Assembly (NCBI GenBank): GCA_041662745.1
Contig: JBAZRV010000002.1
Location: 149,785 to 213,784, forward strand
DNA from: Patescibacteria group bacterium
GTDB taxonomy: Bacteria; Patescibacteriota; Patescibacteriia; 2-01-FULL-39-33
DNA: 64,000 nt
Reading direction: 5' to 3'
Positions 4,738-49,375 of the stretch are shown here, in pieces; the stretch's first letter is position 1, and each line of letters opens with the position of its first letter. The notes beneath the pieces are model-generated. The model saw only the letters and a program-made list of their open reading frames with translations. It had not been told where the DNA came from and ran no database searches. The translations under genes were made by a program, and so were the position numbers.

Positions 4738-5532
4738 GTGATAAGGAAGGGGAAAAATATGGACCAAATTACACAGCCGATTAAGAGGATGGGCGGCGGC
4801 AGGATCGCCGTTTATATCGTTTTAATTTTGGCTCTGGCCTCTGTGGCTATCATTTCCATCGTGCGCGATCGTATTGTTAATTATCCGCAGAACTCGGTGT
4901 CTGTCACCGGGCAAGGCAAAGTGATTTACCAGCCGGACATCGCTATTGTTACTTTGGGCGTACAAATTGATAAGGTGGCCAAACCGGATGAGGCGCTGAA
5001 TCAATTAAATGATCGGATTGCTAAAATTGTTGCGGCGGTCAAGGCTTTAGGCATTGCGCCGGAGGATATTGTTACGCAGAGTTATTCGTTATACCCGCAA
5101 TACGATTATATCAATAATGCCAGCAATCTGTCCGGCTATAACGCCAATCAGCAGGTTACTGTCAAAGTGCGGGACATCAAAGTCAGTCCGGATAAGGTTA
5201 GCAGGGTGTTAGCCGAGGCCAGCAAGGCCGGCATTAATCAGGTCTTGGGAATTTCCTTTGATGTTTCCAATTTAGATGATCTTAAACAACAGGCCAGAAT
5301 TGAGGCTTTGAGCGATGCTAATAATAAGGCAATCAAGATGGCTTCGGCGGCTGAGGTGAAGTTGGGGCGGATTACCGGTTGGTGGGAGAATTACGTGCAG
5401 GGTCCGGGCCAAGGCGTTTCTTATTACGCCGATAAGGGTGGTTTGGGCGGCGGCGGTAGCGTGAGCGCTACAATTCCGACCGGCAGTTATGAGATTGTGG
5501 TGGAGATGAATGTAAATTACAAATTAAAATAA
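4738..5532 (+). CDS. SIMPL-domain (DUF541) secreted/membrane-anchored protein
   Basis: N-terminal TM anchor, then VSVTGQGKVIYQPDIAIVTLGVQ and a C-terminal glycine-rich tail. This pattern is typical of SIMPL/26-kDa periplasmic immunogenic proteins. Confidence 0.55.
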   Translation: MIRKGKNMDQITQPIKRMGGGRIAVYIVLILALASVAIISIVRDRIVNYPQNSVSVTGQGKVIYQPDIAIVTLGVQIDKVAKPDEALNQLNDRIAKIVAAVKALGIAPEDIVTQSYSLYPQYDYINNASNLSGYNANQQVTVKVRDIKVSPDKVSRVLAEASKAGINQVLGISFDVSNLDDLKQQARIEALSDANNKAIKMASAAEVKLGRITGWWENYVQGPGQGVSYYADKGGLGGGGSVSATIPTGSYEIVVEMNVNYKLK

Positions 5533-5640
5533 GAATTAAGATATTTTATTGCCATATTTGAGTGAAGCGAAGGGTTTGGCGGTTTTAACGGAACCGAGCG
5601 CCCTTCGCTTCATTACTCTATAATTCGGAATAACAAATAA

Positions 5641-5711
5641 GGGCCTATAGTCTAGTGGTACGACGCTACATTCGCATTGTAGAGGCGGCGGTTCGATTCC
5701 GCCTAGGTCCA
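5641..5711 (+). tRNA. tRNA-Ala (anticodon CGC)
   Basis: Cloverleaf folded by hand. Acceptor stem GGGCCTA/TAGGTCC with the diagnostic G3:U70 Ala identity pair. Anticodon stem CTACA/TGTAG, loop TTCGCAT, so anticodon CGC. T-arm GGCGG-TTCGATT-CCGCC. Discriminator A. No encoded CCA. Confidence 0.9.
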
Positions 5712-5716
5712 CATAT

Positions 5717-5793
5717 GGACATTTAGCTCAGTTGGTTAGAGCGTTCGATTCACATTCGAAAGGTCACAGGTTCGAATCCTGTAATGTCCACCA
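5717..5793 (+). tRNA. tRNA-Val (anticodon CAC), CCA encoded
   Basis: Acceptor GGACATT/AATGTCC. D-stem GCTC/GAGC. Anticodon stem TTCGA/TCGAA, loop TTCACAT, so anticodon CAC. T-arm ACAGG-TTCGAAT-CCTGT. Discriminator A, then CCA. Confidence 0.9.
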
Positions 5794-7248
5794 GTTCGGA
5801 AATGTCAAATTTTGTTGGTTATTTTGGCCGCCTTGGGCGACCAAATCATACGGAATTTTAAAGTCCAAAAGCAATTGGCGGTTTTGTAAAATGCGGTTCG
5901 ACCCGATATTTTTTAGAAATGCAGCCAGTTCCTTTTTCTCTGGGCTCTGCATTAGGATATTGGCTTGGTTGAGCGATAAAATAAACTCACGAGCCGGTTC
6001 GACCCAAGAAACGCCATTCTGTTCAAAATCTTGGATTTTCTCATTAAGTTCTAACTTTCGAGTTAGGATTTTTTGTTTTCTACTGGTATATTCTTCAGTC
6101 GTGATTGTCTCGCTTAAATAGACATCAAGCAGTTTTTCTAATCGCTGGTTAATATTTTCCAATTCGCTTTTAAGATTTTGAACAGTAATGATTGCCTCGC
6201 CCTTAGCCTGTTTTTCCTCTTTGTCTATCTCAAACAATATTTTCTCGGTTTCTTGAGTCGAAATAGAAACTTTTTGAAGATAATTTTTTATCTGATTTTC
6301 CAATTCTTCTTCGCGTAAAAAATGTTTTTCGAGGCAATTCTGCTTTTTCTTGGTACAACGATAATAATTATGGCCTTTCTGTGTCTCGGCCGTAATACTG
6401 CAACCGCAAGAACATTTCAGTAGTCCAACAAAGGGAAAATCATGCTTTTTAATCCTGCCTCGCTTCTTGCCTCTTTGTCGCATGACATTTTTTACTTCTT
6501 CAAAAAGTTTCTTAGAAATCAACGGCTCGTGAGTGCCCTCAAATACTTCTCCGTCATATTTCATTAGCCCAGTATAGAAAATGTTTTGCAAAAGCGTGAA
6601 GAAATAACTTGTCCTAACTCTTTTGCCGTGAAAGCCCGTCAAATGGTGTTCTTCGCAGAACCTCTCTAAATCGCCCAATGAATAATCCTCAGTGGCGTAG
6701 AGGTCAAATATCTGTCTAATTAGCGGGCCTTTAATAGGGTCGACATCTATACCTCTCGTTTTGGGATTATTCAAATAGCCAATCGGGGCAAGCGAAGGCC
6801 AAACGCCATTTCTAATCTTTTGCCTCATGCCTCGTTTTACATTTTCTCGCAAGTTGTCGATATAGTATTTGCTTTGGCCAAAAGCGATACTAAGCATGAA
6901 TAATCCTTGCGGAGTGGGCTCAAACCAAAAGGTGGGGAATTTGAGGGCTTTTATCGCTCCCTTATCAATCATATGGATTATCTTGCCACCATCAACGCTG
7001 TTTCTCGCCAATCTATCGGGGTGCCACGAAATAATACCACTTGCTTCGCCTTTTTCGATTCTGGCTAGCATTTCGCCGAATATTATTCGGCCTGGCTCTT
7101 TGGCAGTCTTGGCTTCCTGAAAGGAAGCGACAATTTCCAGTTTTTCTTTGGCGGCAAATTCTTTTAATTCAACTAATTGGGCTTCTATAGACAGTATCTG
7201 CCTATCTTCTTCCTCAGTACTCTTGCGAGCGTAAATAAAGTACTTCAT
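5764..7248 (-). CDS. Large serine recombinase (resolvase/invertase-type catalytic domain, recombinase domain, zinc ribbon and coiled coil)
   Basis: N-terminus YARKST (catalytic Ser) through SWHPDRLAR. A Cys-rich zinc-ribbon CSCGCS...YYRC. A long coiled-coil C-terminus. The reading frame runs through the 100-bp flank element into the tRNA-Val gene before reaching a stop, so the true C-terminus is uncertain. Confidence 0.85.
   Translation of the reverse strand: MKYFIYARKSTEEEDRQILSIEAQLVELKEFAAKEKLEIVASFQEAKTAKEPGRIIFGEMLARIEKGEASGIISWHPDRLARNSVDGGKIIHMIDKGAIKALKFPTFWFEPTPQGLFMLSIAFGQSKYYIDNLRENVKRGMRQKIRNGVWPSLAPIGYLNNPKTRGIDVDPIKGPLIRQIFDLYATEDYSLGDLERFCEEHHLTGFHGKRVRTSYFFTLLQNIFYTGLMKYDGEVFEGTHEPLISKKLFEEVKNVMRQRGKKRGRIKKHDFPFVGLLKCSCGCSITAETQKGHNYYRCTKKKQNCLEKHFLREEELENQIKNYLQKVSISTQETEKILFEIDKEEKQAKGEAIITVQNLKSELENINQRLEKLLDVYLSETITTEEYTSRKQKILTRKLELNEKIQDFEQNGVSWVEPAREFILSLNQANILMQSPEKKELAAFLKNIGSNRILQNRQLLLDFKIPYDLVAQGGQNNQQNLTFPNWWTLQDSNL
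5785..5886 (+). repeat. ~100-bp tRNA-3'-flank element (copy 1, forward): the CCACCA end of tRNA-Val plus about 95 bp
   Basis: Exact reverse-complement copy at 7307-7405. A related (~85% identical) element lies immediately 3' of tRNA-Lys at 46603-46690. Confidence 0.85.
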
Positions 7249-7306
7249 GATGAGATTAATTAATGATTAATAATTTAGAATTTAAAAATTTTCTTTTACC
7301 CTAATT

Positions 7307-7405
7307 CAAAACCGCCAATTGCTTTTGGACTTTAAAATTCCGTATGATTTGGTCGCCCAAGGCGGCCAAAATAACCAACAAAATTTGACATTTCCGAACT
7401 GGTGG
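7307..7405 (-). repeat. Inverted exact copy of the 100-bp tRNA-3'-flank element (copy 2), including an inverted CCACCA
   Basis: The reverse complement of 7307-7405 equals 5785-5886. Translation of both copies yields identical peptide strings in the ORF track (…HQFGNVKFCWLFWPPWATKSYGILKSKSNWRF). Confidence 0.85.
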
Positions 7406-7494
7406 AGGATAATGGACATAGCTCGAACGCATTTTCGGGCCGTCGCAGACGGCACTGATTTTCCCCCAAAAATTAAGCCCGAATTCTGAACTTT
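7400..7494 (-). repeat. Inverted exact copy of the terminal ~95 bp of AT-rich repeat-family copy A
   Basis: The reverse complement of 7400-7494 equals 8385-8479. Both copies carry the hairpin GCCGTCTGCGACGGC. The MRSSYVHYPPP peptide appears in two different ORFs of the track. Confidence 0.85.
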
Positions 7495-7598
7495 CAAGAC
7501 TGCCAATGAGCCAGAAAAAATATCGGGTCGAACCGCATTTTGGGTAAAAGAAAATTTTTAAATTCATTATTAACATAATTAATTAACTCATAAATAAT

Positions 7599-8264
7599 AT
7601 GAACCAAAAAACTTTAAACATTATTTTTGGAATCGTCATCGTTATTTTAGTTGTGGCTGTAGCCTATTTTGCTTTTGGTAAAAAAGCTGAACAGTTAAGT
7701 GATCAAAATGAAAACATTAATGTTCCTTTGGTGGACAACAATCAAAATTTACCAACAGCCGAACAGAATCAGAATGTTAATGAGCCAGCAGTGGCCGTGA
7801 ATACAAACCAGCCAGTGGTAAATCCCACTCCACCTACAAATCCGATGGCTGACTGGAAATCATACAATAGTAGCAGTTTTAGTATAAAGTATCCTACTTA
7901 TTTATCGCAAAAAGCCAAAGAAGATGAAGTTAAATCGCCAGTAACTTCGATAGTATCTTTTCAGGGTACTGCACCTCAAAGCAATTACGGTTCTCTGCTT
8001 TCAATTGAACAAATGGTCAATCAAGGCGGATTAACTTTAACTGATTGGACTAATGAAATAATTTCTCAATCAAAATGGATTAAGCAAGGTTCGGTAAAAA
8101 TATCCGGTCAAACTGCTTATATCCTGGTTTTACCAGAAACTGATGCTGGTGCGCGTTACTTTTTCTTGAGTAAAGACGGCCGAACAATGTTTGTTATGAC
8201 AATACAGCATTTTGATCAAACAACAATTGATTCAATTATTTCCTCATTCTTATTGAAAAAATAA
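7599..8264 (+). CDS. Hypothetical membrane-anchored/secreted protein with a Q/N/P-rich linker (cargo between the nested inverted repeats)
   Basis: N-terminal TM segment IIFGIVIVILVVAVAYFAF, a low-complexity N/Q-rich segment, and a C-terminal globular part. No recognisable family. Confidence 0.45.
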   Translation: MNQKTLNIIFGIVIVILVVAVAYFAFGKKAEQLSDQNENINVPLVDNNQNLPTAEQNQNVNEPAVAVNTNQPVVNPTPPTNPMADWKSYNSSSFSIKYPTYLSQKAKEDEVKSPVTSIVSFQGTAPQSNYGSLLSIEQMVNQGGLTLTDWTNEIISQSKWIKQGSVKISGQTAYILVLPETDAGARYFFLSKDGRTMFVMTIQHFDQTTIDSIISSFLLKK

Positions 8265-8281
8265 TATTCTGATTAAGAATT

Positions 8282-8479
8282 AAAAGAATTTGCCGCCAAA
8301 TCAATAAATTTTCAAACTCTGAATTATTTGAAAATTTATTGAGATGATTTTTAGTAAAAAATCATTGAAAAACTGGAAATTGTCAAAGTTCAGAATTCGG
8401 GCTTAATTTTTGGGGGAAAATCAGTGCCGTCTGCGACGGCCCGAAAATGCGTTCGAGCTATGTCCATTATCCTCCACCA
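8282..8479 (+). repeat. AT-rich non-coding repeat family, copy A (~200 bp), ending in CCACCA
   Basis: It shares AAAAGAATTTGCCGCCAAATC…CATTGAAAAACTGGAAATTG…hairpin…AAAATGCGTTCGAGCTAT with copies at 48447-48645 and 49256-49375. Confidence 0.75.
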
Positions 8480-8488
8480 ATATATCTT

Positions 8489-9238
8489 ATGATTATGCCA
8501 AATATTTTATGGTCAATTTCGGCCGTAGCTGTTGTCAGCCTGCTGTCGTTCTCCGGAGCGCTCAGCTTGTTTCTTAACGAAAAGTGGCTGAACAAAGCTT
8601 TGATTTATTTTGTCTCCTTCGCGGCCGGTTCCATGATCGGCGCGTCCTTTTTCCATTTATTGCCCGAAGCCTTAGAAACAATTCCTTCATTAGAGGTTTT
8701 TATCGCCGTTTTAGTCGGTTTCTCGCTTTTCTTCGTCTTGGAAAGATTCTTGCGTTGGCATCATTGCCATAATGGGAAATGCGAAACTCATAATCATTTG
8801 GGCTGGCTGAATTTGATCGGCGACGGTTTTCACAATGCGATTGACGGCATGGTCATCTTTGCCTCCTTTTTGGGCGGTCCGGTTTTGGGCATACCGGTTA
8901 CTTTATCCATAATCCTTCATGAAATTCCGCAGGAATTGGGAGATTTCGGGGTTTTACTATATTCCGGATTTACCAAAAAGAAGGCTTTATTTTATAATTT
9001 GTTTTCCGCCTGCATGGCCTTTGTCGGCGTGTTGCTAGGTTGGATGTTTTATCAACAAAGCGAACTGGTTTCCGCTTTACTTCTGCCTTTTGCCGCCGGC
9101 GGTTTTATTTATATCGCTTCCTCGGATTTGATTCCCGAATTGCATAAGGATAGGAATTTGACCCGCGCTGTTTTATCTTATATTTTGTTTGTTTCGGCTT
9201 TAGTTTTCATGTATTTTATGAAAGTGTGGTTTGAATAG
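8489..9238 (+). CDS. ZIP-family metal (zinc) transporter, ZupT-like
   Basis: The HEIPQELGDFGVLL signature and multiple TM helices. The track ORF starts at 8447 inside the repeat. The ATG at 8489 (MIMPNILWS) is the more plausible start. Confidence 0.8.
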   Translation: MIMPNILWSISAVAVVSLLSFSGALSLFLNEKWLNKALIYFVSFAAGSMIGASFFHLLPEALETIPSLEVFIAVLVGFSLFFVLERFLRWHHCHNGKCETHNHLGWLNLIGDGFHNAIDGMVIFASFLGGPVLGIPVTLSIILHEIPQELGDFGVLLYSGFTKKKALFYNLFSACMAFVGVLLGWMFYQQSELVSALLLPFAAGGFIYIASSDLIPELHKDRNLTRAVLSYILFVSALVFMYFMKVWFE

Positions 9239-9303
9239 ATTAGCTGTTAATTATTTCTTTCCGCCTGTCGGCAGGGTTAGCGTTAAAATATTATCTGGAA
9301 ATT

Positions 9304-10377
9304 ATGAAAAAAATCATATATCTAATCGTTTTTCTGTCAGCGTTTTGGCCGGCTTTGGCATTAGCTCAGTATTCGCCTGTCGGCGATAATCAGAATATTT
9401 ATTATTATTCCGCCACTTGCCCGCATTGTCTTAATGTCCACGAATTTTTTGATCAGTATGATATTTTAAAAAAATATAACATCATAGAGAAAGAGGTGTC
9501 GCAGAATCCCAAAAACGCCAAGGAGTTTTATGATTTATGCGTGGCTAAGAGCGTGCCGCCCGAGGATATTGGCGTACCTTACTTGCATTTTGAGGGTCAG
9601 TGCCTGTCCGGCGATCAGCCGATCATTGATTTTTTTAAAGCTAAATTGGGACTGATGGAGGAAAGCCAGCCGCCGAACGGCGGTCCGGCAACAGGCAAGA
9701 CAGATAACGGCTTGACGATCGGGGCGGTAACCGTGGCGGCTTTGGCCGATTCCATCAACCCTTGCGCCTTCTCGGTTATGATTTTCCTAATGTTGTCGCT
9801 TTTGGCTATCGGCGCTAAGAAGAGAATGCTTAAGATCGGCATCACTTATATTATTACTGTCTATATCGTTTACTTGGCGGCCGGATTGGGTTTGCTGGCA
9901 ACCTTTCAATGGCTTAGCGTCATTAGCAAATATATTTTATGGCTGGCGGCCGGACTGGCGATTATTGCCGGACTAATTAACATTAAAGACTTTTTTTGGT
10001 ATGGCCAGGGGATTACTCTGGCTATTCCCGAAGATAAGAAGCCGCTATTGGAAAAATATATCAAGCACGCCTCACTGCCGGCGGCAATTGTTTTGGGGTT
10101 TTTAGTCGCCCTGTTTGAACTGCCTTGCACCGGCGGATTTTATTTGGCTATTCTGGCCTTGTTGGCTCAAGAAATGACTTATTGGAGCGGGGTGGCTTAT
10201 TTGCTGTTTTATAATATTGTTTTTGTGGCGCCGTTATTTATTATTTTAGCCATTGTGTATAAAGGCGTATCGCCGCAACAGTTGGAGAATTGGCGTACGG
10301 CCAAACGCAAATGGCTACGGCTGTTGATGGGATTAGTGTTAGTTGTGTTGGGTTTGAGTTTGATATTTCTATTTTAA
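9304..10377 (+). CDS. Thioredoxin-like domain fused to a CcdA/DsbD-type disulfide-transporter membrane domain
   Basis: N-terminal signal peptide and a CPHC thioredoxin motif (SATCPHCLNVHEFF). C-terminal 6-TM domain with the conserved cysteines of the CcdA/DsbD family (NPCAFSV… and ELPCTGGFY). Confidence 0.7.
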   Translation: MKKIIYLIVFLSAFWPALALAQYSPVGDNQNIYYYSATCPHCLNVHEFFDQYDILKKYNIIEKEVSQNPKNAKEFYDLCVAKSVPPEDIGVPYLHFEGQCLSGDQPIIDFFKAKLGLMEESQPPNGGPATGKTDNGLTIGAVTVAALADSINPCAFSVMIFLMLSLLAIGAKKRMLKIGITYIITVYIVYLAAGLGLLATFQWLSVISKYILWLAAGLAIIAGLINIKDFFWYGQGITLAIPEDKKPLLEKYIKHASLPAAIVLGFLVALFELPCTGGFYLAILALLAQEMTYWSGVAYLLFYNIVFVAPLFIILAIVYKGVSPQQLENWRTAKRKWLRLLMGLVLVVLGLSLIFLF

Positions 10378-10586: not shown

Positions 10587-11273
10587 ATGAAAAAGAAGAG
10601 TGAGTTCTTGAGTGCCCTGGGTGTTATGTGGGAGATTTGGAAATCGCTGACGGACGAAATTTTGTCTTTAGGCGGCGATGACGAGGCGATTTGCCTTATT
10701 AAGGCGAATAATGATCTGCGAAGGCAAATGGCCGAATTGGTAATGGCTAAAGCGCGTGACATCAAAGACGCCGCCAAGCAAATCGTCTCGCCGTATCTGA
10801 CGTCTGTCCATGACCTCGTCATTGACTTCAGTCAGGATCTCGGGCAGATGATTGCCGCCGGCAAGTATGACTGGACCAACTCCGACATTACCGCCGAGCA
10901 TTTTCCTCTTAATGGAGCGGGTAAGCGGAAGGTCCGAGTCGAGTTGCTTCACTTCAATCAGTATTTCAAAAATGGCGATGAAGTGATTGCCAAACTGAAA
11001 GAAGTCAATAAGTGGCTGGCCCAGCAAGGAGCGAACTATCGCTATCGTTTCTCTCGCATTGAAGAGTTTTTGGCTTTGGGCGTGGTCCAACCCGGTCTGC
11101 AACGGCAATTTCCCATTGCCGCTCTGGGCTCAATTTGGCACCGTGCCGGCCTCCGCGACTTCGCTTACCTCTACGGGTTTGGTGCGGAGCGCGACCTGCG
11201 CCTGCGCTGTCTTGAGTTTGACTTCGGCGGCCCTTGGCGGTTCGCTGTTGTCCGCGAGCATGCCTGCCGGTAG
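10587..11273 (+). CDS. DGR target (variable) protein 1. The C-terminal ~41 codons form variable repeat VR1. The C-terminus ends …WRFAVVREHACR, reminiscent of C-type-lectin-fold DGR targets.
   Basis: Its C-terminal 123 bp match the template repeat, with substitutions only at TR adenines. It is paralogous to the downstream gene over the C-terminal ~130 aa and differs at the N-terminus. Confidence 0.8.
   Translation: MKKKSEFLSALGVMWEIWKSLTDEILSLGGDDEAICLIKANNDLRRQMAELVMAKARDIKDAAKQIVSPYLTSVHDLVIDFSQDLGQMIAAGKYDWTNSDITAEHFPLNGAGKRKVRVELLHFNQYFKNGDEVIAKLKEVNKWLAQQGANYRYRFSRIEEFLALGVVQPGLQRQFPIAALGSIWHRAGLRDFAYLYGFGAERDLRLRCLEFDFGGPWRFAVVREHACR
11133..11255 (+). repeat. DGR variable repeat VR1
   Basis: Aligned by eye to TR (12216-12339). 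About 22 mismatches, all at positions where TR has A (e.g. TR AAC codons correspond to VR CTC, TTT, GGC and so on). Three further non-A mismatches lie only in the last ~12 bp. Confidence 0.85.
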
Positions 11274-11284
11274 GCAGGCATGTT
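11257..11284 (+). other. IMH-like GC-rich segment and hairpin (CATGCCTGCC-GGTA-GGCAGGCATG) downstream of VR1. Probable DGR target-recognition/cruciform element.
   Basis: A perfect 10-bp stem with a 4-nt loop immediately 3' of VR1. The same ~60 bp (GTTGTCCGCGAGCATGCCTGCCGGTAGGCAGGCATGTTACCTTGATTCCTTGAACCTTGAC) follows VR2. It is absent after TR. Confidence 0.75.
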
Positions 11285-11333
11285 ACCTTGATTCCTTGAA
11301 CCTTGACACCAAAATCGGAAAAAGGAGGACATC

Positions 11334-11945
11334 ATGAGAACTGTAAGTAAAACCGGAAACAAAAAAGTCAGAACTGGAACTATCTCCGCCATCACTGGCG
11401 CGATAATCTGCCAAGGCGGAAAAGCCAAGGACTTGACTGCGATTGTCAGAAATGATGAATTGCTCAAACAATTGGCCACGACCATTATCGAACTGTCCAA
11501 AAAGATCATTCAAGTCATTGTTGACTGCACCATGTCGCTCGGCGATATGATCGACGCCGGCAAGTATGACTGGGTGAACTCGAACATCAACGCCAACAAC
11601 TTCCCGATCAGCAGGAAGGGTAAGAAGGTGGTCAGCATTGAACTCTGGCATCCCAACAGGTATTTTAATAACGGCGATGAAGTGATTGCCGAGCTGAAAA
11701 AAACTAAACCCGGCTATCGTTTTACTCAGATTGAAGAACTCCTGGCCTTAGGCGCGGTCCGACCCGATCTGCAACGGCAATTTCCCATTGCCGCTCTGGG
11801 CTCAATTTGGCACCCTGCCGGCGACCGCGACTTCGCTTTCCTCGACAGGCATGATGCGGAGCGCAACCTGTTCCTGGACTATCTTGAGCGTGACTTCAGC
11901 GACCGTTGGCGCTTTGCGGTTGTCCGCGAGCATGCCTGCCGGTAG
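11334..11945 (+). CDS. DGR target (variable) protein 2 (paralog of target 1). The C-terminal portion is VR2.
   Basis: The conserved segment GDMIDAGKYDW…WRFAVVREHACR is shared with target 1. Its C-terminal 122 bp match TR with A-specific differences only. Confidence 0.8.
   Translation: MRTVSKTGNKKVRTGTISAITGAIICQGGKAKDLTAIVRNDELLKQLATTIIELSKKIIQVIVDCTMSLGDMIDAGKYDWVNSNINANNFPISRKGKKVVSIELWHPNRYFNNGDEVIAELKKTKPGYRFTQIEELLALGAVRPDLQRQFPIAALGSIWHPAGDRDFAFLDRHDAERNLFLDYLERDFSDRWRFAVVREHACR
11805..11926 (+). repeat. DGR variable repeat VR2
   Basis: It differs from TR at about 17 positions, all TR adenines. The 3' end (TTGGCGCTTTGCGGTTGTCCGC) is identical to TR. Confidence 0.85.
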
Positions 11946-11956
11946 GCAGGCATGTT
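11929..11956 (+). other. IMH-like segment and hairpin downstream of VR2 (second copy)
   Basis: Identical to the 11257-11284 element. Confidence 0.75.
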
Positions 11957-11991
11957 ACCTTGATTCCTTGAACCTTGACCCCTTGAATTTT

Positions 11992-46512: not shown

Positions 46513-46588
46513 GCGCCTATAGCTCAGTCGGTAGAGCAACAGCCTTTTAAGCTGATGGTCGCTGGTTCGAGTCCAGCTGGGCGCACCA
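46513..46588 (+). tRNA. tRNA-Lys (anticodon UUU), CCA encoded
   Basis: Acceptor GCGCCTA/TGGGCGC. D-arm AGCTCAGTCGGTAGAGC. Anticodon loop CTTTTAA. T-arm GCTGG-TTCGAGT-CCAGC. Discriminator A, then CCA. Confidence 0.9.
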
Positions 46589-46602
46589 GAAAGGAATAGT
46601 CA

Positions 46603-46690
46603 AATTTTTCCGCTTCCCGTCGCCGATTTCGGCGACCAAATCATACGGAATTTCATAATCAAAATGCAATTGGCGGTTTTGTCTGAATAT
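46603..46690 (+). repeat. Divergent copy (~85% identical) of the 100-bp tRNA-3'-flank element
   Basis: GCGACCAAATCATACGGAATTT…CAATTGGCGGTTTTG is shared with 5835-5886. It contains the perfect hairpin GTCGCCGATTTCGGCGAC. Confidence 0.75.
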
Positions 46691-46883
46691 TAATTCAGGT
46701 AAAAGAAAATTTTTATGTTTATTTGACTGCAGAAATTATCATGATTTCTGTTTTTTTGTTCTATTTTGGTGCATATGATTGACATTTTGGTTGATATTTG
46801 CTAAAATTTGGTATTCCCAATGTGAGGGATGTTCTTTGAAATGCCTAGTGCTATCAGCATAACTCAAACGAAAGGAGAGTTTT

Positions 46884-48371
46884 ATGCGTATTGCAGCGAT
46901 TTCCGTTGGTTTGCAAGGGCATGGGCATAACCTCGCCTTTGCTCCAAACGCCATTGTTACAGTGGCAGCCGCTGTTCAGCGGGTTTTTGGAGATAAAGTC
47001 CAGATACGTGTTTTCGACGAAGTTTTGTTTGGTCACGATCAGCTCAAAGAGCTATTGAGTGTGTTTACTCCGAATGTTCTTTTTGTGAGTGTTCCGGTAA
47101 CTGGTTATTATTATTCAGCACTGGACATTTACAATTGGGCAAAAGAGCATGCCATTCCAGTGTTGACTGGAGGGTACCACTTTAATATTCCAGACGTCGA
47201 TTACCATGGGAATCAAGTTTATCCTGGAGTAATCGCCCGTCTAGCCACAGAGCGAGAAGTGTTTGTCTGCTATGCTGACGGGGAATCAACAGCAGTCGGA
47301 TTTGTTGAACACCTCTTTAATCCTAATCATCGCAAGCTCGCTTCAGTTCCAAATCTCTGTTATGTAGAGGCGGGTCAGCTCATTGTCACGCCACGGCAAG
47401 AAAATACCCTTGGTACGCAAGCATACCCAAATTTGCCACTGGAGTCGTTCGATCCCCGTGCTTATTGGGGCTCGCTATCAAAGAGTGATGTCCATGCCAG
47501 CGGAAAGGACTTAATTGGTAACGTTCCAATTGGACGTACAATCGTCGGAGCCAAGATTGTGGAGGGGTGCACTTATCGCCGAGTGAGGTTGAGCCAAGGA
47601 AAGGAAGCATGCTCTTACTGCACATTGACTAGCCCCTGCCACGCGTCCTCAGGTCAGAGTTTTTGGCGTATTACTCAAGAAATGTATGACTATGTCGAGA
47701 GTATATCTTGGTCTGGAGATCAGGGAGTTCGTTGCTATCAAATTGGAGATGATATGGGTAGCGATATCCCTCTCATTAAATCAATTTGGGAATCGCGACC
47801 ACCATGGGCTAACGAGGTTCCTCTCGGTCATCGTGTATATGCTTGGCATGTTCTTGGAGAAGACCAAGCAAGAATGCTATACGACATTGGTGTTCGATGG
47901 ATTTATCTCGGTGGCGATGGGAAAAGGGGGTTTACGAACGAGTGGTCGGTAAGACATCCACTTGTTCGGACTCTGGAGAATTGCCGTAAGCACGGCCTAC
48001 GAGCAAGCATTGGCTTTGTTCTCGGTCAACGAAATCAGGATTGGCATGATATTGAGAAATGGTCCAAATTCAGTCAGCGATTGGCCGCAGAATATGGGGA
48101 TTCTCTCATTATCGTCGACGGCTGGGTGAATGTGCTTGCTCCTGGTTCTCCGGATTGGGCGGTTTTGTGTCAGTATGAACCAAGTTTTGGGAATACGGAT
48201 TGCCCTGATTTGGAGAAGGCCCGCATGGTTTTCTGGCAACAGTGCACAAAACTCTGCGATCATCAGAACCCCGAAGATATCCGTCGGTTGCTGTATGAAT
48301 GGGTGCCACAGTTTGAAAACGACATGAATAGGCATCCTGGCGTCCAGCGTAGTTTCATGTTGCGACCGTAA
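46884..48371 (+). CDS. Hypothetical protein with an N-terminal B12-binding-like Rossmann domain. Possibly radical SAM-related but with a non-canonical Cys motif.
   Basis: The N-terminal …VLFVSVPVTGYYYSALDIYNWAKEHAIPVLTGGYHFN pattern resembles B12-binding domains of B12-dependent radical SAM enzymes. The cysteine cluster is CTYRRVRLSQGKEACSYC (Cx14CxxC), not CxxxCxxC. Codon usage and GC differ from neighbouring genes. Confidence 0.4.
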   Translation: MRIAAISVGLQGHGHNLAFAPNAIVTVAAAVQRVFGDKVQIRVFDEVLFGHDQLKELLSVFTPNVLFVSVPVTGYYYSALDIYNWAKEHAIPVLTGGYHFNIPDVDYHGNQVYPGVIARLATEREVFVCYADGESTAVGFVEHLFNPNHRKLASVPNLCYVEAGQLIVTPRQENTLGTQAYPNLPLESFDPRAYWGSLSKSDVHASGKDLIGNVPIGRTIVGAKIVEGCTYRRVRLSQGKEACSYCTLTSPCHASSGQSFWRITQEMYDYVESISWSGDQGVRCYQIGDDMGSDIPLIKSIWESRPPWANEVPLGHRVYAWHVLGEDQARMLYDIGVRWIYLGGDGKRGFTNEWSVRHPLVRTLENCRKHGLRASIGFVLGQRNQDWHDIEKWSKFSQRLAAEYGDSLIIVDGWVNVLAPGSPDWAVLCQYEPSFGNTDCPDLEKARMVFWQQCTKLCDHQNPEDIRRLLYEWVPQFENDMNRHPGVQRSFMLRP

Positions 48372-48446
48372 CGGGAAGTGTTTTTATTTAGTGGTGTTGT
48401 GCCTCGCATGACACCACTTTTCTTTTTTATTAATTTTTCAAAGAGC

Positions 48447-48645
48447 TAAAAAAATTTGCCGCCAAATCCAGTAAATTTTTCAATAAATCAGCTCTTGAAA
48501 AATTTACTGAAATGAGTTATGATTAACTCATTGAAAAACTGGAAATTGCCGTAAATCAGAATTAGGATTGGGTTTCGTCGGGAGGAAAATCTGCGTCCGC
48601 CGTTGGCGGACAGCCAAAATGCGTTCGAGCTATCTTTAAGATACA
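48447..48645 (+). repeat. AT-rich non-coding repeat family, copy B. It ends in a copy of the tRNA-Lys 3' end.
   Basis: AAAAAAATTTGCCGCCAAATCC…CATTGAAAAACTGGAAATTGCC…GTCCGCCGTTGGCGGAC hairpin…AAAATGCGTTCGAGCTAT, followed by the 20-bp direct repeat. Confidence 0.75.
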
Positions 48646-48684
48646 GCACCAGAAAGGAATAGTCATTCTTTACAATAAAAGGAG

Positions 48685-49128
48685 ATGGTCATGGCTCAAA
48701 TTAAGGTGATAGCTTTTGATGTTTACGGAACCATTCTCTGTTCTGATGACCATGAAAATATTTTGCCGCCACGGTCGGGTTTTACGGAATTCATTTTGCA
48801 TGCTAAGGATTTGAGAATTAAAACCGTTACCAGCTCTGATTCCGATTTGACTAACATGCAATTGGATTTAGCCGCCACCTTTAACGGCGTAGCACCTTTT
48901 GGTTTAGAAATATTTGACGGTTTTTTCAGGCTTGCCATGTACCCCAAGGTTTACCAACAGATTTTGCGATTTTTTGGCATTAAAGATGAGGAATTATTGG
49001 TAATCGGCGATGATTATGCTAAGGATTTATCGCAGGCGCCTTTGCAGGCCCATAAAATCTTAGTTCCGAACTATAAGATTGTCGCCGATGGATTTAGTTT
49101 TTCTCAAGTAGTTATTTCCGACCTTTAA
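48685..49128 (+). CDS. Small HAD-superfamily hydrolase (haloacid-dehalogenase-like motif I DxYGT)
   Basis: IAFDVYGTIL (motif I) and VIGDDYAKDL (motif IV). Only 147 aa. Confidence 0.55.
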   Translation: MVMAQIKVIAFDVYGTILCSDDHENILPPRSGFTEFILHAKDLRIKTVTSSDSDLTNMQLDLAATFNGVAPFGLEIFDGFFRLAMYPKVYQQILRFFGIKDEELLVIGDDYAKDLSQAPLQAHKILVPNYKIVADGFSFSQVVISDL

Positions 49129-49255
49129 CATTCGCCCTCACAAAGCGGATGTTTTTTTGTTATTGATCTTTGACACAACAACCAAGGAAAGGGAAAAGCC
49201 ATGAAAACTATCGCTATCATGCGGGGCTTTTCTTTTTCTTAAATTTTCAAAAGTT

Positions 49256-49375
49256 AAAAGAATTTGCCGCCAAACCCAATAAATTTTTCAAAAGATAGCC
49301 CTATCAGGATTGGATTTCGTCGGGAAGAAAATCTGTGTTCGCTTGTAGCGGACAGCCAAAATGCGTATTTTAAAA
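49256..49375 (+). repeat. AT-rich non-coding repeat family, copy C (internally deleted variant)
   Basis: AAAAGAATTTGCCGCCAAACCCAATAAATTTTTCAAAAG…CAGGATTGGATTTCGTCGGGAAGAAAATCTG…GCGGACAGCCAAAATGCG. It lacks the central ~65 bp present in copies A and B. Confidence 0.7.

Follow-up and report, generated by a model that had tools for sequence, protein, structure and literature searches.

The window analysed here is a stretch of 64,000 nt from a Patescibacteria contig (JBAZRV010000002.1), and all coordinates are positions in this window. At 5787-8479, next to a tRNA-Val gene, it carries a large serine recombinase (LSR) gene and a cargo gene, each enclosed by long inverted repeats. We consider it rather likely that this region is one integrated LSR mobile element, inserted at the tRNA gene's 3' end, which keeps an inverted copy of its own attachment site attP, and that it is not an on/off switch.

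The middle junction of the element is an inverted attP

Repeats were mapped by an exact-match scan together with a repeat finder, tRNAs were called by ARAGORN and Rfam, and protein domains were assigned by Pfam. Two long inverted pairs were found. The sequence 5787-5886 is the reverse complement of 7307-7406 (100 nt, 0 mismatches), and 7400-7494 is the reverse complement of 8385-8479 (95 nt, 0 mismatches). Perfect inverted repeats of this length within 64 kb cannot have arisen by chance. An earlier reading of this DNA from its letters alone (the sequence-only reading) had given the first pair as 5785-5886 and 7307-7405, limits that needed slight correction, and the second pair with the coordinates found here.

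The target gene, tRNA-Val(cac), is encoded on the plus strand at 5717-5793 (ARAGORN; Rfam 76.7 bits). Its last 7 nt, TCCACCA (5787-5793), form the core that is common to three junctions and is defined by the overlap of the repeat pairs. Junction J1 (5787-5793, plus strand) reads tRNA-Val, core, A' arm, which is the attL form; core and A' arm together make up the left arm of pair 1 (5787-5886, plus strand). Junction J3 (8473-8479, plus strand) reads Y arm, core, Z and has the attR form. Here the Y arm and the core TCCACCA are the right arm of pair 2 (8385-8479, plus strand), and Z is the flank of a ZIP transporter gene that starts at 8495, 16 nt beyond attR. Between the divergent LSR and cargo genes lies J2 (7307-7494), where pair 1 with its right arm (7307-7406) and pair 2 with its left arm (7400-7494) overlap. 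Its minus-strand sequence is Y, TCCACCA, A', with the core at 7400-7406; the left arm known from J3 and the right arm known from J1 here meet at the 7-nt core. This shows that J2 is the attP that J1 and J3 would regenerate, physically present in inverted orientation.

The two perfect repeat pairs exist because attL and attP share the A arm and attP and attR share the Y arm. The sequence-only reading had described 7307-7494 as resembling an attP, which is supported by the joint of Y, core and A'. It had also pointed out that ordinary serine integration does not give 100-bp inverted repeats; this is right, since the pairs are attL with attP and attP with attR, not attL with attR.

The architecture is shared by a family of elements at tRNA 3' ends

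For comparison, 80 loci were taken from one-genome-per-species contigs, contigs of close relatives were added, and 84 loci were examined in all. Their assemblies were made by SPAdes, MEGAHIT, IDBA-type assemblers or from long reads, and included the complete genome CP174360.1. At 54 distinct loci an LSR (down to 46% identity) was flanked by inverted arms of 61-177 nt. The arms were perfect in 35 of the 54, and arms with 1-7 mismatches also occurred. The outer end of the downstream arm overlapped the last 5-7 nt of a convergent tRNA 3' end. More than 12 tRNA specificities were used, and the targets included Val, Lys, Leu, Arg, Gln, Phe, Ser, Pro, Glu, Asn, Tyr and Ala. An outer inverted Y pair (69-199 nt, mostly perfect) was also present at 21 loci, where it bracketed 685-4,054 bp of variable cargo. 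The occurrence of 54 such loci at tRNA 3' ends supports the earlier idea of a family of tRNA-targeting mini-islands.

The inverted attP was the one feature kept in all subfamilies, even where the small scaffold pieces described below differed. Two distant members (L050 and L079) retained it without small scaffold pieces and without a promoter duplication, and judged from this conservation the inverted attP itself is therefore probably functional.

Some loci departed from the common location. One element (L007) was located after rplS, with no tRNA. At three loci (L012, L014 and L053) the LSR gene reads not into a tRNA but into a Y-like flank of another subfamily, which suggests that the element was inserted beside a resident one of a different subfamily or recombined with it. 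Nine loci (L008, L042, L045, L049, L053, L054, L058, L078 and L082) came from metagenome-assembled genomes labelled Gammaproteobacteria or Planctomycetia, while their sequence context looked Patescibacteria-like; these labels of third-party-annotation (TPA) assemblies may reflect mis-binning or mislabelling. A viral origin of the family was considered and rejected, as only 5 weak relatives were present among 2.9 million viral contigs.

The Y arm and the tRNA resemble P-type and B-type half-sites

The Y arm contains a TTCG(R) box whose first T is 22 nt from the arm edge (-22), and the T-loop TTCRA of the tRNA is found at -17. The shift between box and T-loop was exactly 5 bp in 25 of 31 loci. 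In serine integrases, the zinc-ribbon-domain motif of attB lies nearer to the crossover than that of attP, by 5 bp (Rutherford et al., PMC3783163). The shift matches this rule, and Y therefore behaves like a half-site of the P type, the tRNA like one of the B type. The Y arm itself is neither tRNA-like nor tmRNA-like according to ARAGORN and Rfam on 5000-9500, where Rfam at E≤1 reported only two tRNAs, so that the arm matches no known RNA.

At the loci with an outer pair, the sequence common to all three junctions was mostly 3-10 nt long. When the loci were aligned on CCA, the shared part of the core corresponded to tRNA positions 71-73, and the crossover accordingly maps immediately ahead of the CCA end. 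A tRNA gene that has no CCA of its own receives a new one from the element.

The arms of each locus evolve in concert

The arms diverge strongly between loci, yet nearly every change is present in both arms of a locus. Comparing L009 with L020, 36 of 37 substitutions in the A arm and 18 of 18 in the Y arm were mirrored. For two copies in one genome the values were 21 of 22 (A) and 14 of 14 (Y), and between the window and its closest relative L005 they were 4 of 5 (A) and 5 of 5 (Y). Such near-total mirroring argues for concerted evolution of the arms. Recent duplication or gene conversion had been proposed earlier to explain the perfect identity, and the mirrored substitutions support ongoing homogenisation.

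In the imperfect arms, G:T mismatches were as frequent on one strand (21) as on the other (22), next to 24 other mismatches, and a wobble bias was thus not seen. This is consistent with arms that were identical initially or are periodically homogenised, and then decay. Arm identity would be maintained by gene conversion or by copying during mobilisation. Diverged syntenic insertion pairs, which would separate conversion in situ from regeneration at transposition, were not present among the 84 loci.

The recombinase gene reads through its own attachment site into the tRNA

The LSR gene (5764-7248, minus strand) encodes 494 amino acids. Pfam identified the Resolvase domain (PF00239, E=4.4e-21, residues 4-150), the Recombinase domain (PF07508, E=7e-11, residues 172-259) and the zinc ribbon (PF13408 Zn_ribbon_recom, E=2e-8, residues 272-324). 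Residues ~325-440, which appeared heptad-like by eye in an alignment of homologues, are a candidate for the coiled-coil motif that large serine recombinases carry in the zinc-ribbon domain and that controls directionality. The protein has an undamaged YARKS(10)T motif, which could be aligned to the catalytic regions of PDB 3GUV and 3G13, and R8 and S10 did not vary among 26 aligned homologues. With the catalytic Ser10 and all three domains in place, the LSR is intact.

The core and A' arm of attL encode the final ~31 codons of the gene on the minus strand, and the C-terminal tail crosses the core into the antisense strand of the tRNA. A search with the LSR gave 7,884 homologues at E≤0.001, mostly from Patescibacteria and many of them 65-70% identical. 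Their C-termini share the motif NLTFPxW[CW]..(D/E)SN, which corresponds to the reverse complement of CCA plus T-loop (GTTCGAATC). The LSR genes therefore generally read into a convergent tRNA. The read-through of the recombinase frame via its own repeat into the tRNA, noticed earlier for this one gene, is borne out across the family by the C-terminal alignment. In the minimal elements examined, the LSR was the only conserved open reading frame (ORF).

Conserved long-range inverted repeats also occur inside the LSR gene (5985-6012/6507-6534 in the window, 5174-5197/6323-6346 in L048 and 5176-5192/6313-6329 in L093). One internal repeat pair is located just inside the pieces named r1 and B below, which are the end-points of an internal deletion in the scaffold copy r1*-B*.

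A sigma-70-like promoter spans the core of the inverted attP

A sigma-70-like promoter (11 of 12 positions matching) spans the J2 core at 7385-7413 on the plus strand and faces the cargo gene. Its -35 element TTGACA (7385-7390) is located in A*, the right arm of pair 1, and is separated by a 17-nt spacer from the -10 element GATAAT (7408-7413) in rcY, the left arm of pair 2. Most loci of the subfamily of at least 59% identity had an equivalent promoter in the same place, its -35 at about -21 and its -10 at about +2; it was present in J2 of 16 loci besides the window. The attL sites had no junction promoter: none of 38 loci reached a score of at least 9. The promoter appears to explain the conserved LSR peptide NLTFP, since AAT TTG ACA TTT CC contains the -35 hexamer TTGACA. 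J2 is 5 nt away from the copy of the promoter that belongs to the LSR gene and 47 nt away from the copy that belongs to the cargo gene.

In IS911-type circles a promoter (Pjunc) is formed only by joining the element ends. In a circularised simple unit of the family described here, the junction promoter would likewise read into the LSR gene, while in the composite element it is permanent and directed at the cargo.

A terminator-like hairpin (GCCGTCGCAGACGGC), followed by a T-rich tail, is present in the Y arm at 7439-7462 on the plus strand and, as the mirror copy, at 8440-8417 on the minus strand. Both hairpins point into the cargo segment (2 found, 0.7 expected). The hairpin at 7439-7462 lies only ~26 nt downstream of the -10 element of the junction promoter, and it could act as an attenuator or define an RNA of ~40 nt.

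The cargo gene is framed by pieces of the recombinase gene

The sequence-only reading was correct about both long repeat pairs and overlooked five shorter inverted pieces, all of which are copied from the LSR gene or its upstream region. Piece B (5888-5914, plus strand; 27 nt of the LSR 3' region) has an exact inverted copy at 7515-7541; it contains a GGTTCGA box and encodes the conserved peptide IGSN. The stretch 7092-7170 (minus strand), nt +78 to +156 of the LSR gene, comprises r2 (7147-7170), r3 (7129-7146), a hairpin named pal (7112-7128) and r1 (7092-7111). Three of these recur in inverted form at the edges of the cargo segment: r2 at 8277-8300 (24 nt, exact), r3 at 8367-8384 (18 nt, exact) and r1 at 7495-7514 (20 nt, one mismatch). 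The upstream and promoter region of the LSR gene (7249-7306, minus strand) contains piece P (7278-7301), for which a 24-nt exact inverted copy upstream of the cargo gene is located at 7542-7565; the extended match is 34 nt at 88%.

The start of the cargo segment (7495-7565, plus strand) thus consists of r1* (7495-7514), B* (7515-7541) and P* (7542-7565), which are sense-orientation copies of LSR nt +137 to +156, +1334 to +1360 and -53 to -30, respectively. The order and positions of r1*-B*-P* were the same in 16-18 other loci. At the end of the segment (8277-8384, plus strand), r2* (8277-8300) and r3* (8367-8384), derived from LSR nt +78 to +101 and +102 to +119, enclose a 66-nt hairpin-forming insert (8301-8366), and r3* abuts the Y arm. 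The B* copies fitted the LSR gene of their own locus at 26.1 of 28 positions, compared to 21.8 of 28 for the LSR genes of other loci.

The 17-nt hairpin pal (GCTTCCTTTCAGGAAGC) is located inside the LSR coding region at nt +120 to +136. Its 6-bp stem is kept between loci by compensatory synonymous changes (GCTTCC/GGAAGC, GCCTCG/CGAGGC, GCTTCG/CGAAGC, GCCTCT/AGAGGC), and the base of the hairpin is the exact point where the Y arms attach in the cargo module.

The cargo gene itself (7599-8264, plus strand) encodes a 221-aa protein that has a membrane anchor at its N terminus and weakly resembles PsbP (PsbP_2, E=8e-4, below the cut-off). In L005, whose LSR is 92% identical at the amino acid level and which is located at tRNA-Val(gac) in another genome with unrelated flanks, both arms and the scaffold are 94% identical, and an unrelated 153-aa gene has been swapped in exactly between P* and r2*. 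At other loci the slot was occupied by genes for an FAD oxidoreductase, a NUDIX hydrolase, a NirK-like multicopper oxidase, XRE regulators or surface proteins. At L062 (1494-4832; Ignavibacteriota, 1.8-Mb contig), enolase and crcB lie within the Y pair together with two further host-like genes, which are either captured housekeeping genes or an enclosed chromosomal segment.

Simple relatives suggest how the composite element may have formed

A cassette array without an LSR gene is present in the same window at tRNA-Lys(ttt) (46513-49366, plus strand), with all parts in direct orientation. The tRNA is followed by GCACCA, then by A' (46589-46681), P*, ORF495, r2*, r3* and Y (48552-48645), then by a second GCACCA, an A' shortened to 14 nt, ORF147, r2* and a truncated Y (49303-49366). 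ORF495 of the first cassette has no Pfam hit, and the 147-aa ORF of the second cassette is HAD-like. The A' arm of the array resembles the arm of the tRNA-Lys-specific element L004; a recombinase of the L004 type is not encoded in the window.

The counterpart of such cassettes is a simple LSR unit found at L048 (4805-6500 of SCSN01000016.1), which has a single A and a single Y arm in direct orientation. Its order is the attR-side Y, then r1*-B*-P*-LSR, then attL, and it adjoins a tRNA 3'-half fragment next to an intact tRNA-Arg. The two halves of the composite element, A'-P*-LSR-A* and rcY-r1*-B*-P*-cargo-r2*r3*-Y, correspond in their order of parts exactly to the reciprocal recombinants that would be expected from an L048-type unit and a simple cassette at P*. 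The composite would be equivalent to a tandem of LSR unit and cassette in which the ~265-bp junction segment between the divergent promoters is inverted. An LSR unit and a single-gene cassette may thus have been joined head-to-head by an exchange at the promoter they share, either as the origin of the element or as a description of its organisation.

In the composite all internal repeats are inverted, and deletion of LSR or cargo between direct repeats would be impossible. A flip of the LSR segment would turn them into direct repeats, and a deletion between the P* copies could then leave a simple cassette like those at tRNA-Lys. The presence of a single isomer may accordingly be explained by survivorship, as far as we can infer. 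An inverted dimer or a single site-specific event was considered as the source of the scrambled order of the small pieces, and no single event fits.

Apart from the element and the array, the window contains a 267-nt direct repeat (11041-11307 and 11713-11979; 86.5% identity, ~670 nt apart), which probably represents two paralogous small genes.

Points that weigh against an integrated mobile element

Several observations count against the reading of 5787-8479 as an integrated mobile element, or against parts of the model of its origin. The right half-sites (A' and Z) do not contain a mirror-image TTCG box and are not quasi-palindromic as is typical for LSR att sites; the conserved motif in A' is better explained as the -35 hexamer than as the mirror of a half-site. 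An empty site, with tRNA-Val joined to the ZIP flank, was not found by look-ups of the neighbouring ZIP and SIMPL proteins or by an exact-pattern scan of JGI metagenomes. Nor did any of the fetched loci contain the junction of an excised circle or of a tandem composite (r3*-Y, core, A'-B). Since neither empty site nor circle nor tandem junction was found, the element is presumed mobile from comparative evidence only, such as the different tRNA-Val, the unrelated flanks and the exchanged cargo of L005.

As for the origin, the simple LSR unit L048 stands alone against more than 50 composites, so that the composite looks like the functional form. The head-to-head fusion does not explain why L050 and L079 have an inverted attP without promoter duplication. 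Gene conversion acting on pieces of 20-30 nt, such as B*, is hard to reconcile with RecA-type recombination. From a circle with two identical attP sites, two integration isomers would be expected, and only one was seen; selection, for stability or for cargo expression from the junction promoter, would have to be invoked for this single isomer. A circle with two equivalent attP copies, as in the yeast 2-micron plasmid, was rejected as unlikely on these grounds, since it predicts both isomers in equal numbers.

Possible roles of the inverted attP and alternative explanations

It is possible, and put forward here only tentatively, that the inverted attP is a mechanistically required part of a new serine-recombinase mobility cycle, acting either in a dumbbell of single-stranded DNA or as a built-in directionality device in cis. 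If true, this would account for the family-wide conservation of the inverted attP, the strict orientation and the helix-like co-variation of the repeated pieces.

The device in cis, taken by itself, is rather unlikely. In this proposal the internal attP would bind an LSR dimer like sites II and III of the Tn3 res site, and it would serve as operator for the divergent promoters and/or would substitute for a directionality factor, enabling excision of the 2.7-kb element by attL x attR recombination. Serine resolvases of the Tn3/gamma-delta type set directionality and regulate themselves through accessory copies of their own site, which provides a precedent. The retention of the inverted attP in all subfamilies, the closeness of J2 to both promoter copies and the lack of a further conserved ORF besides LSR in minimal elements are in line with such a role. 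The proposal is, however, entirely inferential, with no excision products seen in the fetched loci or in the metagenome scan; binding of a protein needs ~50 bp, not 190 bp of perfect identity, and the simple unit L048 has no internal attP.

Less probable again is a folded single strand. Here the element would move, or enter competent cells, as a single-stranded dumbbell, in which a ~190-bp stem (A' paired with A*, Y with rcY) forms a double-stranded attP, and the LSR template strand and the cargo form the loops. This would liken it to integron attC sites or the attP of CTX phage, with a serine recombinase instead. All repeated pieces are inverted relative to their partners and co-vary between loci like helices, and the pal stem with its compensatory synonymous changes, whose base coincides with the attachment point of the Y arms, also fits. 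The plus strand is the template of the LSR mRNA, and pairing of P with P* would make the LSR promoter double-stranded; that only a single orientation was ever seen agrees as well. Serine recombinases cut all four strands, and action on the stem of a dumbbell would leave hairpin-capped breaks in the chromosome; we know of no single-strand exchange in this family. The nearly equal numbers of G:T mismatches on the two strands (21 and 22, with 24 others) give no sign of pairing in a single strand. Moreover, the stem is not needed for integration, since simple cassettes and the simple LSR unit are integrated at tRNAs without an inverted partner, and the small pieces could pair only as pseudoknots relative to the long stem.

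We consider an invertible switch very improbable. The sequence-only reading had suggested an invertible or excisable module, possibly a shufflon-like switch. In such a switch, as in Hin/Gin systems, the LSR or host recombination would flip the LSR segment at the A arms and/or the cargo segment at the Y arms and thereby vary expression. Each segment is indeed bracketed by long perfect inverted repeats, a serine recombinase is encoded between them, and some homologues are annotated as 'DNA invertase Pin-like' by JGI. The orientation of the segments contradicts this suggestion. The LSR segment was flipped in 0 of 54 loci, the gene always reading towards the tRNA, and the cargo segment in 0 of 21, with r1*-B*-P* always at the inner and r2*r3* always at the outer Y arm. 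The window locus itself was present as the same isomer in three assemblies: an ENA MEGAHIT contig (11,943 nt at 100% identity) and a JGI contig (2,925 nt at 100% identity) had the same arrangement as the window. Because the arms are identical and a promoter is present in each segment, an inversion would leave all proteins and all links between promoters and genes as they are. A single flip would also make the small internal repeats direct and invite deletion. Finally, the enzyme is a 494-aa LSR with a zinc-ribbon domain and not a small invertase of ~190 aa. For the short homologue P0015 a B/B* inversion isomer had been suspected; in its contig (L093) the LSR 3' end is instead replaced by sequence of another subfamily.

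Two transposons side by side, an LSR transposon bounded by the A arms and a non-autonomous cargo element bounded by the Y arms, are still more improbable. Each half has perfect terminal inverted repeats that meet at the shared 7 nt, and L080 and L083 share identical A arms with Y regions only 74% alike. Against this, neither half was ever found apart from the other, their order and orientation were constant, and none of the 84 loci had a solo copy bounded by A or Y arms. Together the arms make up exactly one attP, and it is the left part of this attP that mimics the tRNA, with the shift of 5 bp; Pfam found no DDE-type transposase, and the insertions are at tRNA 3' ends.

An assembly artefact, either a collapsed duplicate or a chimeric fold-back join, is effectively refuted: the window is from a metagenome-assembled genome, and graph assemblers can produce or 'clean' perfect repeats and so exaggerate their perfection, yet the ENA and JGI contigs hold the identical structure, the architecture recurs with locus-specific sequence in 54 loci from several assemblers and in the complete genome, and the imperfect arms show that assemblers do not always collapse them.

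Significance and comparison with known systems

The permanent presence of an intact inverted attP, with ~190 bp kept identical by concerted evolution, is not predicted by the current model of serine integrases and, if the elements behave as proposed, points to an unrecognised regulatory or mechanistic role. In that case Patescibacteria (candidate phyla radiation, CPR), which have tiny genomes and few recognised mobile elements, would carry thousands of recombinase shuttles of 2-5 kb. By inserting accessory genes one at a time at tRNA genes, with cassette arrays left behind, these would offer a simple route of gene flux. They would also provide thousands of natural triplets of LSR, attP and attB whose core tracks the tRNA 3' end, which could be useful for integrase engineering. 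The C-terminal peptide of the LSR (NLTFPxW...DSN) appears to be dictated by DNA signals, namely the -35 hexamer, the CCA and the T-loop, and calls for caution in protein-based annotation. We found no description of the family or its architecture in the open-access literature, an absence that is no proof of novelty.

The closest mechanistic likeness is to the elements of phiC31, Bxb1 and A118/LI integrase, which have a three-domain LSR, a short core, the 5-bp motif shift and hybrid attL and attR sites. In contrast to these, the elements described here target the extreme 3' end of many tRNAs, and the core co-varies with the tRNA. Each attP arm shows conservation over ~90 nt, the integrated element retains a complete inverted attP, and the right half-sites are not mirrored. 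The element in the window is 2.7 kb in size, with one cargo gene and no recognisable directionality factor.

SCCmec and the enterococcal cassette chromosome (CcrAB/CcrC) are similar in that an LSR inserts the element at a conserved housekeeping gene's 3' end and the gene is restored, and in forming arrays that include cassettes without recombinase. They differ by their rlmH target, their size of tens of kb, their short imperfect inverted repeats at the ends and the lack of an internal inverted attP, and the LSR described here is of a different clade that is found mainly in Patescibacteria. In lifestyle the elements recall the tycheposons of Prochlorococcus and their cargo-only satellites, small cargo shuttles that insert into tRNAs and form tandem islands in streamlined genomes (bioRxiv 10.1101/2020.12.28.424599). 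Of these, 910 of 937 use tyrosine recombinases and a minority large serine recombinases (bioRxiv 10.1101/2020.12.28.424599). Tycheposons have direct partial-tRNA repeats at their flanks, and neither an inverted internal att site nor a recombinase-derived scaffold is described for them.

Other systems share single features. The res site of Tn3/gamma-delta is also a serine recombinase site between divergent genes, in a resolution system. IS911 likewise forms a promoter from joined ends, but it is a DDE transposon in its circular form, whereas here the joined ends are permanent in the integrated element. Hin, Gin, Pin and shufflons have inverted repeats that bracket a segment beside or containing a recombinase gene. 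Hin, Gin and Pin are, however, invertases of ~190 aa with a C-terminal helix-turn-helix and sites of 26-34 bp, both orientations coexist and inversion changes the choice of gene, and the shufflon uses a tyrosine recombinase. The elements described here share none of these traits. Integrons, with the tyrosine recombinase IntI, attI and promoterless attC cassettes, are similar only in the logic of the array; the cassettes at tRNA-Lys have a promoter copy and end in Y and core.

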